Counted from the stretch's first letter, positions 1-9,183 are shown. The stretch: 20,958 nucleotides of DNA from a virus (IMGVR_UViG_2703718839_000004:1-20958), one strand, 5' to 3'. Program-made: numbers and translations. The notes: a model not told the origin generated them from the sequence alone.

Positions 1-1
1 C

Positions 2-27
2 TTCTCCCAAACCAACGTTTATGAAAA
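2..27. other. gix/cix/hix-type DNA-inversion crossover site (edge of an invertible segment lying upstream of the window)
   Basis: TTCTCCCAAACCAACGTTTATGAAAA fits the Gin/Hin/Cin/Pin crossover consensus TTnTCnnAAACCnnGGTTTnnGAnAA (recalled from memory) at 17 of 18 defined positions; it sits ~55 bp upstream of the invertase gene, as gixR does relative to gin in Mu. Confidence 0.7.
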
Positions 28-82
28 TGCAGAGATAACGGCTAACTGGCATCATCTCCGGTTTTTATTCAGGGGGATGATC

Positions 83-649
83 ATGCTTATTGGCTATGTA
101 CGCGTGTCAACAAATGACCAGAACACCGATTTGCAACGCAATGCACTGAACTGTGCGGGATGTGAGCGGATTTTTGAGGATAAAATCAGTGGCACCAAGT
201 CCGACAGACCGGGGCTGAAAAAGCTGCTCAGGACACTATCGGCAGGAGACACGCTGGTTGTCTGGAAGCTGGACAGACTGGGGCGCAGTATGCGGCATCT
301 TGTTACGCTGATAGAAGAGCTGCGCCAGCGTGGCGTGAATTTCCGAAGCCTGACTGACAGTATTGATACCAGCACCCCAATGGGCCGTTTCTTTTTTCAT
401 GTCATGGGTGCCCTGGCTGAAATGGAACGCGAACTGATAGTTGAACGTACCAGGGCGGGGCTGGCTGCAGCTCGTGCTAAAGGCAGAGTAGGTGGACGCC
501 GTCCTAAGTTGACCAGCGAACAGTGGGCACAGATTGGGCGTTTACTCGAGGCCGGAGAATCAAGACAGCGTATTGCACTGATTTTTGATGTAGGCGTTTC
601 TACCATTTATCGAAAATTTCCGGCAAACAAGAACAATAAATCTCCCTGA
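83..649 (+). CDS. Serine DNA invertase, Gin/Pin/Cin/Hin family (tail-fibre host-range switch recombinase)
   Basis: Translation MLIGYVRVSTNDQNTDLQRNAL...VVWKLDRLGRSM...SIDTSTPMGRFFFHVMGALAEMERELI is near-colinear with Gin/Hin as I recall them, including the catalytic Ser in the VRVST motif. Start moved from 77 to the ATG at 83 because GGGGGA at 72-77 gives proper SD spacing only for that codon. Confidence 0.9.
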   Translation: MLIGYVRVSTNDQNTDLQRNALNCAGCERIFEDKISGTKSDRPGLKKLLRTLSAGDTLVVWKLDRLGRSMRHLVTLIEELRQRGVNFRSLTDSIDTSTPMGRFFFHVMGALAEMERELIVERTRAGLAAARAKGRVGGRRPKLTSEQWAQIGRLLEAGESRQRIALIFDVGVSTIYRKFPANKNNKSP

Positions 650-697
650 ATCAGCTTTATTTTGATTATCCCTGAAAGCAGACAAATACCGTCATTT

Positions 698-715
698 TGT
701 GTGAATAACGGTACA
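698..715 (+). promoter_or_regulatory. Candidate Ogr-dependent P2-type late promoter element (TGT-N12-ACA dyad) upstream of FI
   Basis: TGTgtgaataacggtACA at 698-715 matches the TGT-N12-ACA activator-binding dyad of P2/P4 late promoters; located ~80-95 bp upstream of the FI start. Exact -10 and transcription start not resolved. Confidence 0.45.
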
Positions 716-791
716 ACTGCGTTTAGCTGTTTGTCAGGCACAATCACTTCAACATAGGGCGAAGCCTAATCCAATCAGGAGGTTCGCCACT

Positions 792-1964
792 ATGGCTCAG
801 GATTACCACCACGGGGTGCGCGTTGTTGAAGTCAACGAAGGCACCCGATCCATTACCACGGTGAGCACCGCCATCGTGGGTATGGTCTGCACGGGCGATG
901 ATGCCGATGCAAAAATGTTTCCTCTTAATAAACCTGTGCTGATCACTGATGTGCTGACCGCCAGCGGTAAAGCGGGTGAGTCTGGCACGCTGGCCCGTTC
1001 GCTGGATGCCATCGCTGACCAGGCAAAACCCGTGACCGTTGTTGTGCGTGTGCCGCAGGGTGAAACGGAAGAAGAAACCACAACCAATATCATTGGCGCA
1101 GTGACCGCCGAGGGTAAAAAAACAGGTATGAAAGCCCTGTTATCTGCCCAGTCACAGCTCGGCGTTAAACCGCGCATTCTCGGCGTGCCAGGTCACGACA
1201 CGAAGGCGGTAGCTACTGAGTTGCTGAGCGTGGCGCAAAGCCTGCGTGGATTTGCTTACCTGTCAGCGTATGGTTGCAAGACGGTGCAGGAAGCAATCAC
1301 TTACCGTGAAAACTTCAGTCAGCGTGAAGGAATGCTGATCTGGCCCGACTTTACTGGCTGGGACACGGTGCTGAATGCCGAAGCAACGGCTTATGCCACC
1401 GCCCGTGCGCTCGGTCTGCGCGCTAAAATTGATGAGCAGACCGGATGGCACAAAAGCCTGTCCAACGTGGGCGTGAACGGTGTCACCGGAATTTCTGCTG
1501 ATGTGTTCTGGGATCTGCAGGACCCGGCAACCGATGCAGGTCTGCTTAACCAGAACGATATCACCACGCTTATCCGCAAAGACGGTTTCCGCTTCTGGGG
1601 TTCCCGCTGTCTGAGCGATGATCCGCTCTTTGCCTTCGAAAACTACACCCGCACGGCGCAGGTGCTGATGGACACGATGGCAGAAGCGCACATGTGGGCG
1701 GTGGACAAACCGCTGAACCCGTCGCTGGCCCGCGACATTATCGAAGGTATCCGCGCCAAAATGCGTAGCCTGGTCAGTCAGGGCTATCTCATTGGTGGTG
1801 ATTGCTGGCTGGACGAGTCGGTGAACGATAAAGACACGCTGAAAGCCGGGAAGCTCACCATCGATTACGACTACACGCCAGTGCCGCCACTTGAAAACCT
1901 GATGCTGCGTCAGCGCATCACCGATCAGTACCTGGTGAATTTCTCCAGCCAGGTCAGCGCGTAA
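792..1964 (+). CDS. FI: P2-like contractile tail sheath protein (gpFI)
   Basis: 390-aa ORF with AGGAGG SD 7 nt upstream; N-terminus [19 protein letters not shown]... and motifs [56 protein letters not shown] match P2 FI as recalled. Confidence 0.95.
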
Positions 1965-1973
1965 GGGGACAAC

Positions 1974-2489
1974 ATGGCTTTACCACGCAAATTAAAACAC
2001 CTGAACCTGTTTAACGACGGGAACAACTGGCAGGGGATCGTTGAGTCGCTGACGCTGCCGAAATTCACCCGCAAATATGAGAAGTATCGCGGCGGCGGTA
2101 TGCCCGGAGCGGTGGATGTGGATCTGGGACTGGATGACAGTGCACTGGATACAGAATTTTCCATTGGTGGTACTGAACTGCTGCTGTTTAAGCAGATGGG
2201 CAAAGCCACGGTGGATGGCATCCAGCTGCGCTTTACCGGCTCTATTCAGCGTGACGATACCGGGGAAGTGCAGGCCGTGGAGCTTGTGGTGCGTGGACGT
2301 CACAAAGAAGTAGATTCCGGCGAGTGGAAGACGGGCGAAAGCAACACTACCAAAGTGACCAGTACCAACAGCTACGCGAAGCTGACCATCAATGGTGAGG
2401 TGCTCTATGAAGTGGACCTGATCAACATGGTGGAAATTGTGGACGGTGTGGACCTGATGGAAGCGCACCGCAACGCCCTCGGCCTCTGA
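1974..2489 (+). CDS. FII: P2-like tail tube protein (gpFII)
   Basis: 171-aa ORF directly after FI with AAGGGGA SD; MALPRKLKHLNLFNDGNNWQG... is typical of P2 FII; conserved position between sheath and E. Confidence 0.92.
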   Translation: MALPRKLKHLNLFNDGNNWQGIVESLTLPKFTRKYEKYRGGGMPGAVDVDLGLDDSALDTEFSIGGTELLLFKQMGKATVDGIQLRFTGSIQRDDTGEVQAVELVVRGRHKEVDSGEWKTGESNTTKVTSTNSYAKLTINGEVLYEVDLINMVEIVDGVDLMEAHRNALGL

Positions 2490-2543
2490 TGTATCTGAAC
2501 GGCGCGGAATGCCGCGCCAGAACCTAATTTACAGGACAACAAA

Positions 2544-2846
2544 ATGAGCGATAAGCAGACTGAAAAGACCATTCAACTGGATACTCCCATCATGCGCGGT
2601 AAAACAGAAATTACCGAAATTGTGTTGCGTAAACCGCAGTCCGGTGCGCTGCGCGGCACACGCCTGCAGGCCATTATGGATATGGATGTGAACGCGATGA
2701 TGACCGTGATCCCCCGCATCTCCAGTCCGGCACTGACTGCACAGGAAATTGCAGAGATGGACCCGGCAGATCTCACTGCCATGTCGGTTGAGGTTGTCAC
2801 TTTTTTGTTGAAGAAGTCGGTGCTTGCCGGTTTACCGACAGCCTGA
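2544..2846 (+). CDS. E: Tail assembly chaperone gpE (in-frame product)
   Basis: 100-aa ORF in the conserved P2 position between FII and T; contains the T TTT TTG slippery heptamer at 2801-2807. Confidence 0.85.
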   Translation: MSDKQTEKTIQLDTPIMRGKTEITEIVLRKPQSGALRGTRLQAIMDMDVNAMMTVIPRISSPALTAQEIAEMDPADLTAMSVEVVTFLLKKSVLAGLPTA

Positions 2847-2980
2847 CGGTTGACGATCTGGTGGCTGATATCGCCACCATCTTTCACTGGCCGCCATCCG
2901 TTACTGACGTTATGCCGCTGACCGAAGTGCTGGAATGGCGGTATAAAGCGATTCAGAGAAGCGGGGCCAGCCATGAGTGA
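2544..2980 (+). CDS. E': gpE+E' fusion made by programmed -1 ribosomal frameshift at TTTTTTG (2801-2807)
   Basis: After a -1 slip at 2801-2807 the reading frame stays open (…VEEVGACRFTDSLTVDDLVADIATIFHWPPSVTDVMPLTEVLEWRYKAIQRSGASHE) to the TGA at 2978-2980, overlapping the T start; this is the known P2 E/E+E' (lambda G/GT-like) arrangement. Confidence 0.7.
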
Positions 2981-5900
2981 CAATAACCTGCGTCTGCAGG
3001 TGATTCTTAATGCGGTTGACAAACTCACCCGCCCATTTCGATCCGCGCAGGCCAGTTCAAGAGAACTGGCTGCTGCTGTCAAAAAATCCCGCGATGCAAT
3101 AAAGCAGCTTGATCAGGCCGGGAGCAGTCTGGACAGCTTCCGAAAGCTGCAGGCAGAAAATCAGAAATTAGGCGACAGGCTGAACTATGCCCGCCAGCGT
3201 GCAAATTTGCTCAGTCAGGAACTGGGAGCGATGGGGCCGCCTTCGCAACGTCAGGTTGTTGCTCTGGGCCGTCAACGGCTGGCTGTTCAGCGCCTGGAAG
3301 AACGCCAGAAAAAGCTGCAGCAGCAGACGGCGCTTGTGCGTGCAGAACTTTATCGTGCTGGTATTTCAGCTAATGATGGCGCCAGTGCGACGGCCCGCAT
3401 TACCCGTGAAACGATGCGTTATAACAGGCAGCTTTCTGAGCAGGAAGCGAGGTTACGACGTGTCGGGGAGCAACAGCGAAAAATGCACGCCGCCCGGGGG
3501 GCTTACGCCAGGCGTCTTGAGGTAAGGGATCGTATTGCAGGTGCCGGAGCCACCACCACGGCTGCAGGGCTGGCAATGGGCGCACCAGTGATGGCGGCAG
3601 TAAAAAGCTATACCAGCATGGAAGATGCCATGAAAGGTGTGGCAAAGCAGGTCAATGGTCTGCGTGACGATAATGGCAACCGCACTGCGCGTTTTTACGA
3701 AATGCAGGGTGCCATCAAGGCTGCCAGCGAACAGTTGCCGATGGAAAACGGTGCTGTGGACTTCGCCGCACTGGTTGAAGGTGGTGCGCGCATGAACGTC
3801 GCAAACCCTGACGACAGCTGGGAAGACCAGAAACGTGACCTGCTGGCCTTCGCCAGCACGGCGGCAAAGGCGGCAACAGCCTTTGAACTGCCAGCGGATG
3901 AACTGTCAGAAAGTCTGGGGAAAATCGCCCAGCTCTACAAAATCCCTACCCGCAATATTGAGCAGCTCGGTGATGCGCTGAACTATCTGGATGATAACGC
4001 CATGTCGAAAGGGGCGGACATCATTGATGTCATGCAACGCCTGGGCGGTGTGGCTGACCGTCTGGATTATCGTAAAGCGGCGGCGCTGGGTTCCACCTTC
4101 CTGACACTCGGCGCTGCGCCTGAGGTTGCAGCCAGTGCAGCAAACGCGATGGTGCGTGAATTGTCCATTGCCACCATGCAAAGCAAGAGTTTCTTTGAAG
4201 GGATGAATCTGCTGAAACTCAATCCAGAAGTGATTGAAAAGCAGATGACGAAGGATGCGATGGGAACTATCCAGCGCGTGCTGGAGAAGGTGAATGCGCT
4301 GCCACAGGATAAGCGCCTGTCTGCCATGACCATGTTGTTTGGTAAAGAGTTTGGCGATGACGCAGCGAAACTGGCAAACAACCTGCCGGAACTTCAGCGC
4401 CAGTTAAAACTGACAGCGGGCAATGATGCGCTCGGTTCCATGCAGAAAGAATCCGACATCAACAAGGATTCACTTTCTGCTCAGTGGTTGCTGGTCAAAA
4501 CCGGAGCACAGAACACCTTCAGCAGCCTGGGGGAAACGCTGCGCCAGCCGCTGATGGATATTCTGTACACGGTGAAAAGCGTCACGGGGGCGTTGCGTCG
4601 CTGGGTGGAAGCTAACCCGGAACTGACGGGCACTCTGATGAAAGTAGCCGCTGTGGTAGCTGCCGTTACCGTGGGCCTCGGCACCTTAGCGGTGGCGCTG
4701 GCTGCAGTGCTGGGGCCGCTGGCAGTCATCCGTCTGGGATTCTCTGTGCTGGGTATCAAAACGTTACCTTCCGTTACGGCAGCAGTAACCCGAACCAGCA
4801 ACGCGTTGTCCTGGCTGGCTGGCGCACCACTGGCACTGCTGCGACGCGGGCTTGCTTCATCGGGCAACGCTGCAGGTTTACTTACTGCGCCGTTGTCGTC
4901 TTTGCGCCGCACGGCATCACTGACGGGAAATGTCCTGAAAACTGTAGCAGGTGCGCCGGTTGCACTTTTGCGGTCTGGATTATCCGGTTTACGTGCGGTT
5001 GCTGTGATGTTTATGAATCCACTGGCGGTACTACGCGGCGGACTGGCTGCCACAGGCACGGTGCTGCGTATGCTCGCATCCGGTCCACTGGCGATGCTGC
5101 GCGTTGCCCTGTATGCCGTCTCTGGTCTGTTAGGTGCTCTGCTCAGTCCGATAGGTCTTGTGGTTACTGCACTGGCGGGTGTGGCGCTGGTTGTCTGGAA
5201 ATACTGGCAGCCCATCACCGCATTTCTCGGTGGCGTGGTGGAAGGATTCAAAGCGGCGGCAGGTCCTGTCAGTGCCGCGTTCGAACCGCTTAAGCCTGTG
5301 TTCCAGTGGATTGGCGACAAAGTACAGGCGCTGTGGGGCTGGTTTACTGATCTGCTGACGCCCGTTAAGTCGACCTCTGCCGAACTGCAGAGTGCAGCGG
5401 CAATGGGGCGACGATTCGGGGAGGCTCTGGCGGAAGGGCTGAATATGGTCATGCATCCGCTGGACTCCCTGAAATCCGGCGTTTCCTGGTTGCTGGAGAA
5501 ACTTGGCATTGTCAGTAAAGAGGCCGCAAAGGCGAAACTGCCGGAAAGCGTGACGCGTCAGCAACCTGCGACGGTGAATGCAGACGGTAAAGTGATGATG
5601 CCATCGGGTGGTTTTCCGTCATGGGGATATGGCTTTGCGGGGATGTATGACAGCGGCGGGTATATCCCGCGCGGGCAGTTTGGCATCGTCGGTGAAAACG
5701 GGCCGGAAATTGTTAACGGCCCGGCAAATGTGACCAGCCGGAGAAATACAGCTGCACTGGCTGCCGTTGTTGCCGGAATGATGGGTGTTGCTGCTACGCC
5801 AGCAGAGCTTCCACCGTTGCACCCTTTGGCACTTCCCGCGAAAGGCGGTGAAGCGATGGTGAGTCGTGCAGCCACTGTGCTGCCCGTTCAACGGATTGAG

Positions 5901-6050
5901 GCACCGATGCAGATCATCATTCAGACGCAGCCAGGACAAAGTGCGCAGGATATTGCGCGGGAGGTGGCCCGCCAGCTTGATGAACGTGAACGCAGGCTGA
6001 AGGCAAAAGCCAGGAGTAACTACAGCGATCAGGGGGGATACGACGCATGA
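2973..6050 (+). CDS. T: Tail tape measure protein (gpT)
   Basis: 1025-aa ORF, coiled-coil-rich N-terminal half, hydrophobic Ala/Gly/Leu-rich middle, canonical position after E/E'. Confidence 0.9.
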   Translation: MSDNNLRLQVILNAVDKLTRPFRSAQASSRELAAAVKKSRDAIKQLDQAGSSLDSFRKLQAENQKLGDRLNYARQRANLLSQELGAMGPPSQRQVVALGRQRLAVQRLEERQKKLQQQTALVRAELYRAGISANDGASATARITRETMRYNRQLSEQEARLRRVGEQQRKMHAARGAYARRLEVRDRIAGAGATTTAAGLAMGAPVMAAVKSYTSMEDAMKGVAKQVNGLRDDNGNRTARFYEMQGAIKAASEQLPMENGAVDFAALVEGGARMNVANPDDSWEDQKRDLLAFASTAAKAATAFELPADELSESLGKIAQLYKIPTRNIEQLGDALNYLDDNAMSKGADIIDVMQRLGGVADRLDYRKAAALGSTFLTLGAAPEVAASAANAMVRELSIATMQSKSFFEGMNLLKLNPEVIEKQMTKDAMGTIQRVLEKVNALPQDKRLSAMTMLFGKEFGDDAAKLANNLPELQRQLKLTAGNDALGSMQKESDINKDSLSAQWLLVKTGAQNTFSSLGETLRQPLMDILYTVKSVTGALRRWVEANPELTGTLMKVAAVVAAVTVGLGTLAVALAAVLGPLAVIRLGFSVLGIKTLPSVTAAVTRTSNALSWLAGAPLALLRRGLASSGNAAGLLTAPLSSLRRTASLTGNVLKTVAGAPVALLRSGLSGLRAVAVMFMNPLAVLRGGLAATGTVLRMLASGPLAMLRVALYAVSGLLGALLSPIGLVVTALAGVALVVWKYWQPITAFLGGVVEGFKAAAGPVSAAFEPLKPVFQWIGDKVQALWGWFTDLLTPVKSTSAELQSAAAMGRRFGEALAEGLNMVMHPLDSLKSGVSWLLEKLGIVSKEAAKAKLPESVTRQQPATVNADGKVMMPSGGFPSWGYGFAGMYDSGGYIPRGQFGIVGENGPEIVNGPANVTSRRNTAALAAVVAGMMGVAATPAELPPLHPLALPAKGGEAMVSRAATVLPVQRIEAPMQIIIQTQPGQSAQDIAREVARQLDERERRLKAKARSNYSDQGGYDA

Positions 6051-6532
6051 TGATGGTGCTGGGATTGTACGTGTTTATGCTGCGCACCGTGCCGTATCAG
6101 GAGCTGCAGTATCAACGCAGCTGGCGACATGCGGCAAACAGCCGGGTAAACCGACGCCCGTCAACGCAGTTTCTGGGACCGGACAACGACATGCTGACGC
6201 TTTCTGGTGTTCTTATGCCGGAGGTAACGGGCGGCAGGCTGTCGTTGCTGGCTCTGGAGCAGATGGCAGAACAGGGAAAAGCATGGCCCCTGATTGAAGG
6301 CAGCGGCACGATTTACGGCATGTATGTGATTGAGGGACTGAATCAGACTAAAACGGAGTTTTTCCGCGACGGTATGCCGCGCCGGATTGAGTTCACCCTG
6401 TCGCTAAAACGCGTGGATGAATCCCTGTCCGATATGTTCGGTGATCTCAGTGCGCAACTGAATAATCTGCAGGGAACGGCAACATCTGCCTTAAGCGATA
6501 TCAGTAAAACGGTGGGAGGGCTGCTGTCGTGA
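6047..6532 (+). CDS. U: P2-like tail protein gpU
   Basis: 161-aa ORF overlapping the T stop (ATGA); sequence and position match P2 U. Confidence 0.88.
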   Translation: MMMVLGLYVFMLRTVPYQELQYQRSWRHAANSRVNRRPSTQFLGPDNDMLTLSGVLMPEVTGGRLSLLALEQMAEQGKAWPLIEGSGTIYGMYVIEGLNQTKTEFFRDGMPRRIEFTLSLKRVDESLSDMFGDLSAQLNNLQGTATSALSDISKTVGGLLS

Positions 6533-7629
6533 ATTTCAGCTCTGAACTGCTTAACAAAGGCAACAAAACTCCGGCATTCAGCATCAGTATTGAAGGCAGG
6601 GATATCACCACTGTGCTGGACAACCGCCTGATGGGGCTGACGCTGACGGATAACCGGGGCTTTGAAGCGGACCAGCTTGATCTGGAGCTGGACGACGCCG
6701 ATGGAAAAATCGTGCTGCCGCGCCGTGGGGCTGTCATTACGCTGGCGCTGGGCTGGAAGGGACAGCCGCTTTTCCCGAAAGGGGCATTCACGGTGGACGA
6801 GATTGAACACACTGGCGCACCGGATCGCCTGACTATCCGGGCGCGAAGTGCTGATTTTCGAGAAACGCTGAATACCCGCCGTGAAAAGTCGTGGCACAAG
6901 ACCACCGTTGGGGAAGTGGTGAAGGAAATAGCTGCGCGGCACAAACTGAAGATGGCATTGGGTGAAGACTTGTCGGATAAACTCGTGGAGCATATAGACC
7001 AGACTAATGAGAGTGACGGCAGTTTTTTGATGCGGCTGGCGCGCCAGTACGGTGCTATTGCGTCGGTGAAAAATGGCAATCTGTTATTCATCCGGCAGGG
7101 GCAGGGTAAAAGCGCCAGCGGTAAACCACTACCGGTGATCACTATCACACGCAAGGACGGCGACAGTCACCGCTTTACCCTGGCAGATCGCGGAGCTTAC
7201 ACGGGCGTCATTGCCAGCTGGTTGCATACCCGCGAACCCGCGAAGAAAGAAAGCACCACGGTGAAGCGTAAGCGCAGGACTAAGAAGCAGAAGAAAGAGC
7301 CGGAAGCGAAGCAGGGCGATTACCTGGTGGGTACGGATGAAAACGTGCTGGTACTTAATCGCACTTATGCCAACCGGAGCAACGCCGAACGGGCAGCGAA
7401 AATGCAGTGGGAACGCCTGCAACGCGGCGTTGCATCATTCTCGCTACAACTGGCGGAAGGGCGGGCAGATCTCTACACAGAAATGCCTGTGAAGGTCAGT
7501 GGCTTTAAACAGCCGATAGATGATGCGGAATGGACCATTACGACTCTGACGCATACCGTCAGCCCGGATAACGGTTTTACGACCAGTCTGGAGCTTGAAG
7601 TGAGGATTGATGATTTCGAAATGGAATGA
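6529..7629 (+). CDS. D: P2-like tail protein gpD (late control gene D)
   Basis: 366-aa ORF with GTG start overlapping the U stop (GTGA); basic KKESTTVKRKRRTKKQKKEPEAK stretch and overall architecture as in P2 D. Confidence 0.88.
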   Translation: MNFSSELLNKGNKTPAFSISIEGRDITTVLDNRLMGLTLTDNRGFEADQLDLELDDADGKIVLPRRGAVITLALGWKGQPLFPKGAFTVDEIEHTGAPDRLTIRARSADFRETLNTRREKSWHKTTVGEVVKEIAARHKLKMALGEDLSDKLVEHIDQTNESDGSFLMRLARQYGAIASVKNGNLLFIRQGQGKSASGKPLPVITITRKDGDSHRFTLADRGAYTGVIASWLHTREPAKKESTTVKRKRRTKKQKKEPEAKQGDYLVGTDENVLVLNRTYANRSNAERAAKMQWERLQRGVASFSLQLAEGRADLYTEMPVKVSGFKQPIDDAEWTITTLTHTVSPDNGFTTSLELEVRIDDFEME

Positions 7630-7719
7630 TTCTTCGCAATGGAGAACTTTTAAGTTTGCAAAATGGAATAATGCGGTATCATTATTGTGAATTTAGCAAA
7701 AATGGGGAGAACTCGAAAA

Positions 7720-7938
7720 ATGATGATTTGCCCACTGTGTGGAAGTGCCGCCCATACTCGCAGCAGTTTTCAGGTATCTTCATTGACCAAAGAGCGTTAC
7801 AACCAGTGCCAGAACATTAACTGCAGCCATACTTTTGTTACCCATGAAACTTTTGTTCGTTCGATTGCAACGCCAAAAGAGTCAAATCCGGTTCAGCCGC
7901 ATCCAATGAAATCAGGACAGGTGGCGCTCTCTCTTTGA
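7720..7938 (+). CDS. ogr: Ogr/Delta-family zinc-finger late transcription activator
   Basis: 72-aa product MMICPLCGSAAHTRSS...ERYNQCQNINCSHTF with the CxxC...CxxxxC zinc motif of P2 Ogr; GGAGA SD 9 nt upstream of the ATG at 7720. The longer ORF from 7687 was rejected. Confidence 0.85.
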   Translation: MMICPLCGSAAHTRSSFQVSSLTKERYNQCQNINCSHTFVTHETFVRSIATPKESNPVQPHPMKSGQVALSL

Positions 7939-8295
7939 CGCTGCCGCCATTTTGTCGCCATCGTTAAAAAACAGTGCTTCTAACATCATGATTTTAAAAG
8001 GCATAAATTTCAGGCAACAAAAAACCCATTTTTTTTGCATGATGTGACCACGCTCAACTTCAATCCTTCTGATGTCAGCTTTATCGGTATTACACTGCGC
8101 CAATGCAGACAACAAGGCGACATTCAGATCTAAGCTCGAGCCCCACGTAAAATGATCAGGTAAATCAGGCTGAGGGGTTTCAGCCGTCAGGCTGGCTGGT
8201 AACGGAACTACCGGAACCTGGACGTAAACTGTTCGCGTACTTCCGCAACCGGTCAGCAGCGGCAGCAGGCACAGGACGTGAAGCACAATCATCAT
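7912..8295 (-). CDS. Rz1-like o-spanin (outer-membrane lipoprotein), +1 frame, starting inside Rz and running past it
   Basis: MMIVLHVLCLLPLLTGCGSTRT carries a lipobox (LTGC) followed by a Pro-rich segment PVVPLPASLTAETPQPDLP; start 8295 lies inside the Rz gene. The 3' extent is uncertain: the last ~40 codons run through AT-rich sequence and overlap ogr convergently by 27 bp. Confidence 0.55.
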   Translation of the reverse strand: MMIVLHVLCLLPLLTGCGSTRTVYVQVPVVPLPASLTAETPQPDLPDHFTWGSSLDLNVALLSALAQCNTDKADIRRIEVERGHIMQKKWVFCCLKFMPFKIMMLEALFFNDGDKMAAASKRERHLS

Positions 8296-8572
8296 CCGCA
8301 ACAGCCACTTTGATATCTTCCTGGGTTCTCTGTGACTCCAGTGCGATCTGCTGTTTTGCATGTTGATTCGCCTCCTGAATGATGTTCGTTATTGCCATAG
8401 TACGCAGAACATTCGCGGTGATAGCCTCAGTAGAATCAGCTCGCTGTTCCGCAGCATCAGCACGCTTCTGCTCCTCCAGAAACTTTCCATGATAGTGATT
8501 CGCTGACCAGACAAGACCACCAGCGACACAAGCAATAAACGTTAAAATGAGCGCCCAATAACTCATCTTCAT
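8180..8572 (-). CDS. Rz-like i-spanin
   Basis: 130 aa with an N-terminal TM helix (YWALILTFIACVAGGLVW) and a charged coiled-coil-like periplasmic part; start overlaps the endolysin stop (ATGA); contains the embedded lipoprotein ORF. Confidence 0.7.
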   Translation of the reverse strand: MKMSYWALILTFIACVAGGLVWSANHYHGKFLEEQKRADAAEQRADSTEAITANVLRTMAITNIIQEANQHAKQQIALESQRTQEDIKVAVADDDCASRPVPAAAADRLRKYANSLRPGSGSSVTSQPDG

Positions 8573-9183
8573 ACCAGCAGCGCCGACCGCGCCTTGTTGT
8601 ATCGGACCTTACGATCCTCAATACCGTTCAAACCGCCGTTAATGATGCGCGTAACACGGTTAATATCGGCACCGTAGATCATGCAACCTTTAGAGGTGTA
8701 GAACCATGCAGCTGAGCGCGCAGCCTGTAGTTCCTGTTCCAGTTGTTCAGGTGAAGTCACCAGATCTAACTTCAGCGCCGCGCCACAGATGCGATAATTA
8801 TGGAGGCCAGTGATTTGAATTAATCCTCTACCACGATATTTCCAGCCATCACCTGGTGCTTTGTTACCCAGTCGGTTGCTATACACCAGATTGGCAATAG
8901 CATCCTGACGAGCTGCATGTCCGGATGTTCTGCCAAGGGCATCAGCCTGCTGCTGTGTGATCCTCTTTCCGAACGTCGCCACCAGCGCAGATGGTGTGTA
9001 GTTAAAATTTTCAACTACGGCGCTAAACCCCATCGACTCATGGCCTACCTGAGCGATAAACATTGCCTGATCCGCTGGTGCTGTAATGCCGAATTCCTTC
9101 ATCGCCGCATCAATGTGCGGAAACCAGCGCGCAGCCAGCCCGGCGCTAATACCAGCCGCCTTTTGAAATAATTGTTGGTTCAT
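8569..9183 (-). CDS. Endolysin, glycoside hydrolase family 19 (chitinase-like lysozyme)
   Basis: 204-aa protein with GH19-type motifs (AMFIAQVGHESMGF, YRGRGLIQITGLHNY) as I recognise them; start overlaps the upstream membrane-protein stop (TAATG). Confidence 0.85.
   Translation of the reverse strand: MNQQLFQKAAGISAGLAARWFPHIDAAMKEFGITAPADQAMFIAQVGHESMGFSAVVENFNYTPSALVATFGKRITQQQADALGRTSGHAARQDAIANLVYSNRLGNKAPGDGWKYRGRGLIQITGLHNYRICGAALKLDLVTSPEQLEQELQAARSAAWFYTSKGCMIYGADINRVTRIINGGLNGIEDRKVRYNKARSALLV

Follow-up and report, generated by a model that had tools for sequence, protein, structure and literature searches.

Integration of P2 and lambda at secondary attachment sites belongs to classical genetics. 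Such sites of P2 are reportedly the subject of work by Barreiro and Haggard-Ljungquist from 1992. As in the P2-like family analyzed here, the phage-side endpoint at the classical P2 and lambda secondary sites is fixed at the core while the bacterial flank varies; partial core homology is usually kept there, however, and the lambdoid site described below is a poor match. Integration of one prophage into another has also been documented in E. coli, specifically in STEC and EPEC strains, where the resident prophages possess genuine attB copies that originate from chromosomal loci (Nakamura et al. 2021, PMC8112680). The best reading of the present locus, a temperate phage inside an E. coli prophage with one junction visible, is similar to these systems (Nakamura et al. 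2021, PMC8112680). However, in place of a real attB, the lambdoid target offers 3-5 bp of microhomology and no att-like sequence. The DNA analyzed, from here on referred to as the window, is the entire draft contig LOOC01000040.1 of GCA_001575295.1 (20,958 bp), which carries the attR side only. A literature search by accession (LOOC.., GCA_001575295) did not yield any match. Judged by alignment, the junction found in this window joins the right end (attR) of a P2/186-like E. coli prophage to the middle of a lambdoid prophage. Both elements are common and well-known prophage types, and the case is best classed as a further example of a familiar phenomenon, namely secondary-site use or a prophage-prophage junction.

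The left end of the contig falls inside the P2-like element, at a gene for a Hin/Gin-type serine DNA invertase located at the very start of the contig (77-649, + strand; Pfam Resolvase and HTH_7). This contig end probably reflects an assembly break in the invertible tail-fibre segment of this prophage. The structural genes of the P2-like module end with one for a gpD-like late control/tail protein (6529-7629, + strand; Pfam Phage_GPD), and this region is collinear with Klebsiella phage 4LV2017 and E. coli P2-like prophages. It is followed by ogr (7720-7938, + strand), with an ATG at 7720 and a stop codon at 7936-7938, encoding a 72 aa Ogr/Delta zinc-finger late-gene activator (Pfam Ogr_Delta, E=5e-22; PHROG 603). 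Gene order, with gpD preceding ogr, and the presence of the Ogr/Delta zinc-finger protein are those of a P2/186-like (Peduoviridae) right end, and the core found downstream of ogr is identical to the attL core of complete prophages. Between ogr and the core lies the AT-rich P arm of the att site (7939-8002), which is identical to the spacer separating ogr from attR in canonical prophages.

Three comparisons illustrate how closely this module follows known elements. Phage 4LV2017 (KY271398, Peduoviridae, Elveevirus) shows the same order of gpT, gpU, gpD, ogr, P arm and att core, is 96.5% identical over 7000-8029 and shares both core and endpoint. The P2/186-like prophage located between ybjL and rcdA in E. 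coli UPEC-245U/190328 (NZ_CP049845.1) is 100% identical over 6000-8029, ogr included, and 99.4% identical over 2-8029, again with the gene order, att core and endpoint of the window. E. coli B2C is 99.9% identical across the whole of 1-8029, and this complete segment is present in 943 E. coli genomes with identities of up to 99.9%. The P2-like right end, consisting of ogr, P arm and att core, is complete rather than eroded. The earlier note had taken ogr as the last gene of a P2-like element and expected a prophage end or recombination joint next to it; ogr does mark the end of the element, and the edge of the attR core follows at 8029.

The common core of attR occupies 8003-8029 (27 bp, imperfect when compared with the empty attB) and contains a perfect 14 bp stretch, AACAAAAAACCCAT, at 8016-8029. 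It was missed in the initial inspection, which had noted no recognizable att core between the two modules, yet it sits exactly at the breakpoint. Comparison of attL and attR in UPEC-245U gives the same perfect 14 bp core, which ends at CAT and has its right edge at the equivalent of 8029. In this strain, the prophage is located between rcdA (int/attL side) and ybjL (ogr/attR side), with attL reading ...TTTTAGAT-AACAAAAAACCCAT-TTATGTAAACGGG... and attR reading ...TTTCAGGC-AACAAAAAACCCAT-CAACCTTGAACC..., while the P' arm of the P2-like phage reads TTATGTAAACGGGTTAATG. Matches to empty ybjL sites begin at the equivalent of 8003, and the common core is therefore about 27 bp long and imperfect. The record of 4LV2017 annotates as attR its last 19 matching bases, corresponding to 8011-8029 of the window. 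No second copy of the core was detected in the window, even with 2 mismatches allowed.

The canonical integration site of this P2-like family is the ybjL terminator, which is occupied, with attR abutting it, in 1105 of 5426 complete E. coli genomes. Direct reading of the UPEC-245U sequence (L004 6012-6090, L006 5480-5530) indicates that the core, on the opposite strand, forms the stem end and T-run of the ybjL terminator, and that it plays the same role in a terminator-like hairpin following int in attP. Given this overlap of core and terminator in both partners, integration would keep a terminator for ybjL. In canonical P2-like prophages, the core is followed on its right by this terminator (CAACCTTGAACC...), whereas the window continues there with the 3' end of a lambdoid o-spanin gene.

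Endpoints of the family were surveyed in 120 IMG/VR contigs containing the P-side 25-mer. The 25-mer is followed by the ybjL flank in 108 contigs, by the P' arm (attP form) in 8, by other sequence in 3 (L026, L034 and L031) and by the contig end in one. P-side sequence terminates at ...AACCCAT in all 120 contigs, with the switch directly after ...CCCAT, and position 8029 therefore represents the integrase-defined end of the P2-like family. In L026 and L034, the core is followed by a 5'-truncated CDS of the Mg-chelatase/ChlI family (Pfam Mg_chelatase), which we read as yifB/comM-type; its flank, TAACCTTGCTCC, resembles the canonical flank CAACCTTGAACC. A search for the uninterrupted form of this yifB-type site did not return any near match in E. 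coli, and the flank presumably stems from another genus. The core of L031 is followed by a porin-like N-terminus, with the insertion located after about codon 28; we take this flank to be the start of a porin-like gene on the basis of 29 residues. All three appear to be non-canonical integrations disrupting host genes. The variable flanks found next to one and the same phage-side endpoint indicate that non-canonical insertions do occur in this family.

To the right of the junction, the window contains a lambdoid early region that is normal overall and encodes Q, DUF968, KilA-N, RusA, Dam and an Ash-family protein as well as CII-like, Cro-like and CI-like proteins and an integrase. The Q-type antiterminator (10674-11426, - strand; Pfam Antiterm PF03589; named antitermination protein Q in Escherichia phage SKA5) drives the lambdoid late operon leftwards, toward the junction. 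Downstream of Q lie two holin-family genes (9183-9464 and 9451-9837, - strand; Pfam Phage_holin_3_7 and Phage_holin_8), a GH19 endolysin gene (8569-9183, - strand; Pfam Glyco_hydro_19, a match marked as weak) and the gene of a 130 aa Rz-like i-spanin (8180-8572, - strand; PHROG 214, E=3e-47). The i-spanin has a precomputed Pfam match to DUF2570, which in our own Pfam scan scored 16.7 bits, below the curated cut-off of 26.6; its E. coli homolog is named DUF2570 domain-containing protein in RefSeq. Between Q and the holin genes, in a so-called moron position, lies an AT-rich ORF (9986-10576, - strand, 34% GC; 196 aa from the first ATG, called as 182 aa) with a hydrophobic N-terminus, for which no match was found in Pfam, NCBIfam, PHROGs or PADLOC. 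Further, Rfam models identify a C4 antisense RNA (16055-16142, 82.8 bits) and isrK (16167-16243, 63.7 bits) adjoining each other at 16055-16243 on the - strand, inside or next to the lambdoid Phage_ASH gene. The arrangement resembles a P1/P7-type c4-ant immunity module, here placed in a lambdoid backbone.

The closest described relative on the lambdoid side is Escherichia phage SKA5 (OR670062), which is 99.7% identical across endolysin, i-spanin and o-spanin (8027-9200), with related lambdoid prophages reaching 99.7-100%. SKA5 carries ORFs of the same size in the holin positions and a Q antiterminator upstream, and SKA5 and its kin combine a GH19 endolysin with an overlapped Rz/LysC spanin pair, all as in the window. 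The o-spanin of SKA5 is 89 aa long, ends with a TGA stop codon and is followed by GrlR-like, HNH, TerS and TerL genes, whereas in the window the stop codon is lost and the P2-like end follows instead. Intact relatives generally continue after lysC with a GrlR-like gene, an HNH endonuclease, TerS (P27 family), TerL, portal, protease and capsid genes. A search with the GrlR-like protein returned cluster representatives only, at no more than 93% identity. The lambdoid prophage is cut mid-genome, between the lysis cassette and the GrlR-like/HNH/terminase genes and directly behind the last sense codon of its o-spanin gene, and not at one of its ends.

Two lambdoid landmarks were considered for position 8027 and rejected. 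A natural lambdoid module boundary is contradicted by 68 E. coli genomes with the same lysC allele, in all of which the join between lysC and the GrlR-like gene is intact, and no high-identity lambdoid match breaking at the lysC stop codon was found among E. coli genomes. In HK97-like phages, cos is expected near the HNH and TerS genes. These genes are located further downstream in the relatives, so that the junction does not represent a lambdoid cos end.

Alignment with intact P2-like and lambdoid prophages, as proposed in the earlier note, places the breakpoint at 8027-8029. Megablast of positions 7000-9200 against phage records returned two clean groups, one of P2-like Klebsiella phages (7000-8029), among which 4LV2017 is the best annotated, and one of lambdoid phages (8027-9200). 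P2-like phages and prophages align with the window through 8029 at 96.5-100% identity and lambdoid prophages align from 8027 onward at 99.7-100% identity, with three- and four-way alignments locating the switch between ...AACAAAAAACCCAT and TTTTTTTGCATG.... On the lambdoid side, more than 1600 E. coli genomes align from 8027 onward, with 100% identity over 8027-8500 in the best cases. That two different phage elements meet here, as initially suspected, is thus borne out, with the P2-like element extending to 8029 and the lambdoid one beginning at 8027. The three bases CAT (8027-8029) are the sole ones common to the P2-like attR and the lambdoid sequence. When attP and attB are reconstructed, the microhomology extends to CATTT (8027-8031), such that attP shares 5 bp with the lambdoid target compared with 3 bp for the ybjL attR. 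As the break falls within 3 bp of the att core edge, an integrase is strongly implied, and random deletion or an assembly chimera are argued against.

UPEC-245U contains both parental sequences, 100% identical around the breakpoints, at separate loci (~4.207 Mb and ~4.900 Mb, ~693 kb apart), and their relative orientation is such that an inversion would be needed to generate the join of the window. With intact copies matching both flanks at 100% identity, erosion is absent and the event seems to be a recent one. The earlier proposal of two elements in tandem with one end eroded therefore holds with regard to the two elements and fails with regard to erosion, the P2-like end being complete and the lambdoid prophage being cut mid-genome.

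The junction itself was found nowhere else. It is absent from all 5426 complete E. coli genomes and from phage records, and exact-pattern scans with junction 34- to 42-mers did not return any hit in GTDB species representatives, IMG/VR or JGI metagenomes. The fused protein encoded across it (WP_432763920.1, RefSeq, E. coli) is found in one contig only among ~15 billion proteins. No independent genome or phage record was found in which the same contiguous arrangement recurs, whereas a conserved single-phage or mosaic genome type would be expected to recur. We therefore regard the junction as a one-off prophage-prophage join, and the reading as a genuine hybrid phage, in which an Ogr-driven P2-type tail module would be combined with a Q-driven lambdoid early/lysis module, is not supported. 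The physical contiguity of the two modules and their seemingly intact state within the window speak for a hybrid. However, a complete att core located exactly at the joint marks the terminus of an integrated element rather than a boundary between modules of one genome, and neither side diverges from separate parental prophages, with which the two sides are collinear at 99-100% identity and which UPEC-245U carries as distinct elements. The join further destroys a stop codon and leaves convergent transcription without a terminator. In light of these observations and of the unrepeated arrangement in phage records, viral contigs and genomes, a single hybrid phage is barely credible.

The observation that the junction is present in a single draft contig also raises the question of misassembly, in which case both prophages would be separate in the strain, with contig ends joined by the assembler or a gap closer. 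A spontaneously excising prophage would create a branch point in the assembly graph at its att core. The 3-5 bp shared at the joint are, however, far below any k-mer or overlap length, and few random joins would land within 3 bp of the att core edge. In addition, there is no population-level mosaic boundary in lambdoid prophages that could give rise to a contig end at 8027. Taken together, a chimeric contig appears improbable.

One consequence of the join is a chimeric o-spanin. The ORF (7912-8295, - strand) encodes 127 aa, with a Pfam LysC match to residues 13-81 and a PHROG 456 ('Rz-like spanin') match to residues 1-87. Residues 1-89 (8029-8295) represent the native LysC/Rz1-like protein, while residues 90-127 (7915-8028) result from read-through into P2-like att and antisense ogr DNA. 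The native part shows the hallmarks of a two-component spanin, namely a lipoprotein signal peptide (MMIVLHVLCLLPLLTGC...) with an LLTGC lipobox and its cysteine, the family domain, and a start at 8295 nested out of frame within the i-spanin gene (8180-8572), an architecture known as overlapped spanins. The family-typical native C-terminus is replaced by 38 extra residues without family match, with both Pfam and PHROG profiles stopping short of this tail. In SKA5 and UPEC-245U, the intact protein ends in ...GHIMQKK followed by TGA and is 89 aa long from the MMIVLH start, or 111 aa if the upstream ATG, chosen by PGAP, is used.

The extension can be traced to a single base. Intact lambdoid relatives have TGA at the former stop codon (8026-8028, - strand), where the window has TGG (Trp90). 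On the displayed strand, the stop codon is the complement of TCA, and position 8026, the first base derived from the P2-like side alone, is C instead of T. The stop codon is therefore converted from TGA to TGG and 38 more codons are translated, passing through the att core, the AT-rich P arm in antisense and the last 27 nt of ogr, also in antisense. The initial description of the last codons as AT-rich and non-spanin-like was accurate, the GC content being 38.5% (7939-8029) compared with 50.8% in the native o-spanin part. Likewise, coordinates and profile matches confirm the 27 bp convergent overlap (7912-7938) reported between ogr (7720-7938, + strand) and the o-spanin ORF (7912-8295, - strand). 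When the antisense strand of the P2-like part is entered at random, about 39% of the entries stay open for at least 38 codons before a stop codon, and an extension of this length is therefore unremarkable. Loss of the stop codon at the junction thus accounts for the long ORF, its AT-rich tail and the 27 bp overlap as passive by-products. Given what is generally known about spanins, the 38 aa C-terminal extension probably impairs the o-spanin or its interaction with the i-spanin.

With regard to the origin of the junction, we favor, with moderate confidence, integration of the P2-like phage at a non-canonical and poor secondary site inside a resident lambdoid prophage. The P2-like integrase would have inserted the phage at a poorly homologous lambdoid site between the lysis cassette and the packaging genes, resulting in a prophage within a prophage, with the remainder of the lambdoid element expected beyond the attL of the P2-like prophage. 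The crossover would fall in the CAT(TT) microhomology, and the first base of the P2-like side would turn the o-spanin stop codon TGA into TGG. The longer match of the lambdoid target to attP than to the ybjL attR (CATTT, 5 bp, versus 3 bp) appears to support insertion. The contig runs unbroken through the junction, suggesting that the P2-like right end is present as a single copy in the genome. Insertion at this site predicts a reciprocal join between attL and the lambdoid sequence of the form ...CAAAGTTAACATCAT directly followed by TTATGTAAACGGG....

Two observations count against insertion. First, the target is without att likeness, and a tyrosine integrase would recombine there rarely. The intact lambdoid site reads ...GTTAACATCAT followed by TTTTTTT... 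(uninterrupted sequence ...AACATCATTTTTTTT...) and shows no significant likeness to the att core, ranking ~100 of 2480 windows in a 12.5 kb lambdoid stretch; it was accordingly rejected as a pseudo-att site. No recognizable attB copy of the incoming phage was found in the host prophage, and no lambdoid prophage with the core next to lysC was found among E. coli genomes. Second, the junction was found once only, and neither IMG/VR nor the GTDB representatives contained a match to the reciprocal junction that insertion predicts. The junction looks like rare secondary-site use and not like a recurrent system.

The same lack of att likeness, which means that ordinary recombination of attP with attB is not obviously favored, could point to a later rearrangement. 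In this scenario, the edge of a canonical ybjL/rcdA attR would have been joined to the point following the o-spanin gene by inversion, or by deletion if the orientations in the strain differ, through integrase-assisted or illegitimate recombination, leaving the lambdoid prophage split or truncated. UPEC-245U shows that both parents can reside at separate loci in 100% identical form, and an inversion there would give the exact join; chromosome inversions between prophages have also been reported in E. coli (PMC8112680). However, a non-integrative route would need a break exactly at the att core edge, the microhomology available to attR is 3 bp only compared with 5 bp for attP, and an inversion spanning several hundred kb of a single replichore would be costly. 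To our knowledge, recombination of attR with a pseudo-site is not a normal reaction of tyrosine integrases, which also counts against this scenario. We thus consider a rearrangement unlikely, although it deserves more weight than misassembly.

If the P2-like phage was inserted as we favor, ~33 kb of antisense P2-like DNA would interrupt the lambdoid late operon, and the lambdoid prophage would not be packageable as a unit. Q-dependent late transcription would enter antisense P2-like DNA before reaching the packaging genes, and the composite element would exceed the capacity of the lambdoid head, so that, short of prior excision of the P2-like element, the lambdoid prophage would be disabled. 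The ogr gene, in turn, is left without the usual ybjL terminator after attR and faces convergent transcription. No terminator-like hairpin was found between 7500 and 8700, in agreement with the initial remark that no terminator separates the two modules. One could further imagine that the P2-like phage acts as a nested reversible block in the late operon of a still-functional lambdoid prophage, similar to a switch of the 'active lysogeny' type. While integrated, it would separate Q and the lysis genes from the packaging genes and disable the o-spanin, and precise excision mediated by integrase and Cox would restore the TGA stop codon and lambdoid particle production. We regard such a switch as highly improbable.

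For annotation, the value of this analysis lies in correcting the 'hybrid phage' and 'long spanin' readings. The region does not represent a new hybrid phage type, and the 127 aa 'LysC' (WP_432763920.1) is an artefactual fusion arising at a prophage junction rather than a new long spanin. Further, the junction provides a base-resolved example of a P2-like phage end joined, inside another prophage, to a site with almost no att homology. If insertion is indeed the origin of the junction, it would add one more case to the known prophage-in-prophage phenomenon and would illustrate how one prophage may inactivate another by splitting its late operon.
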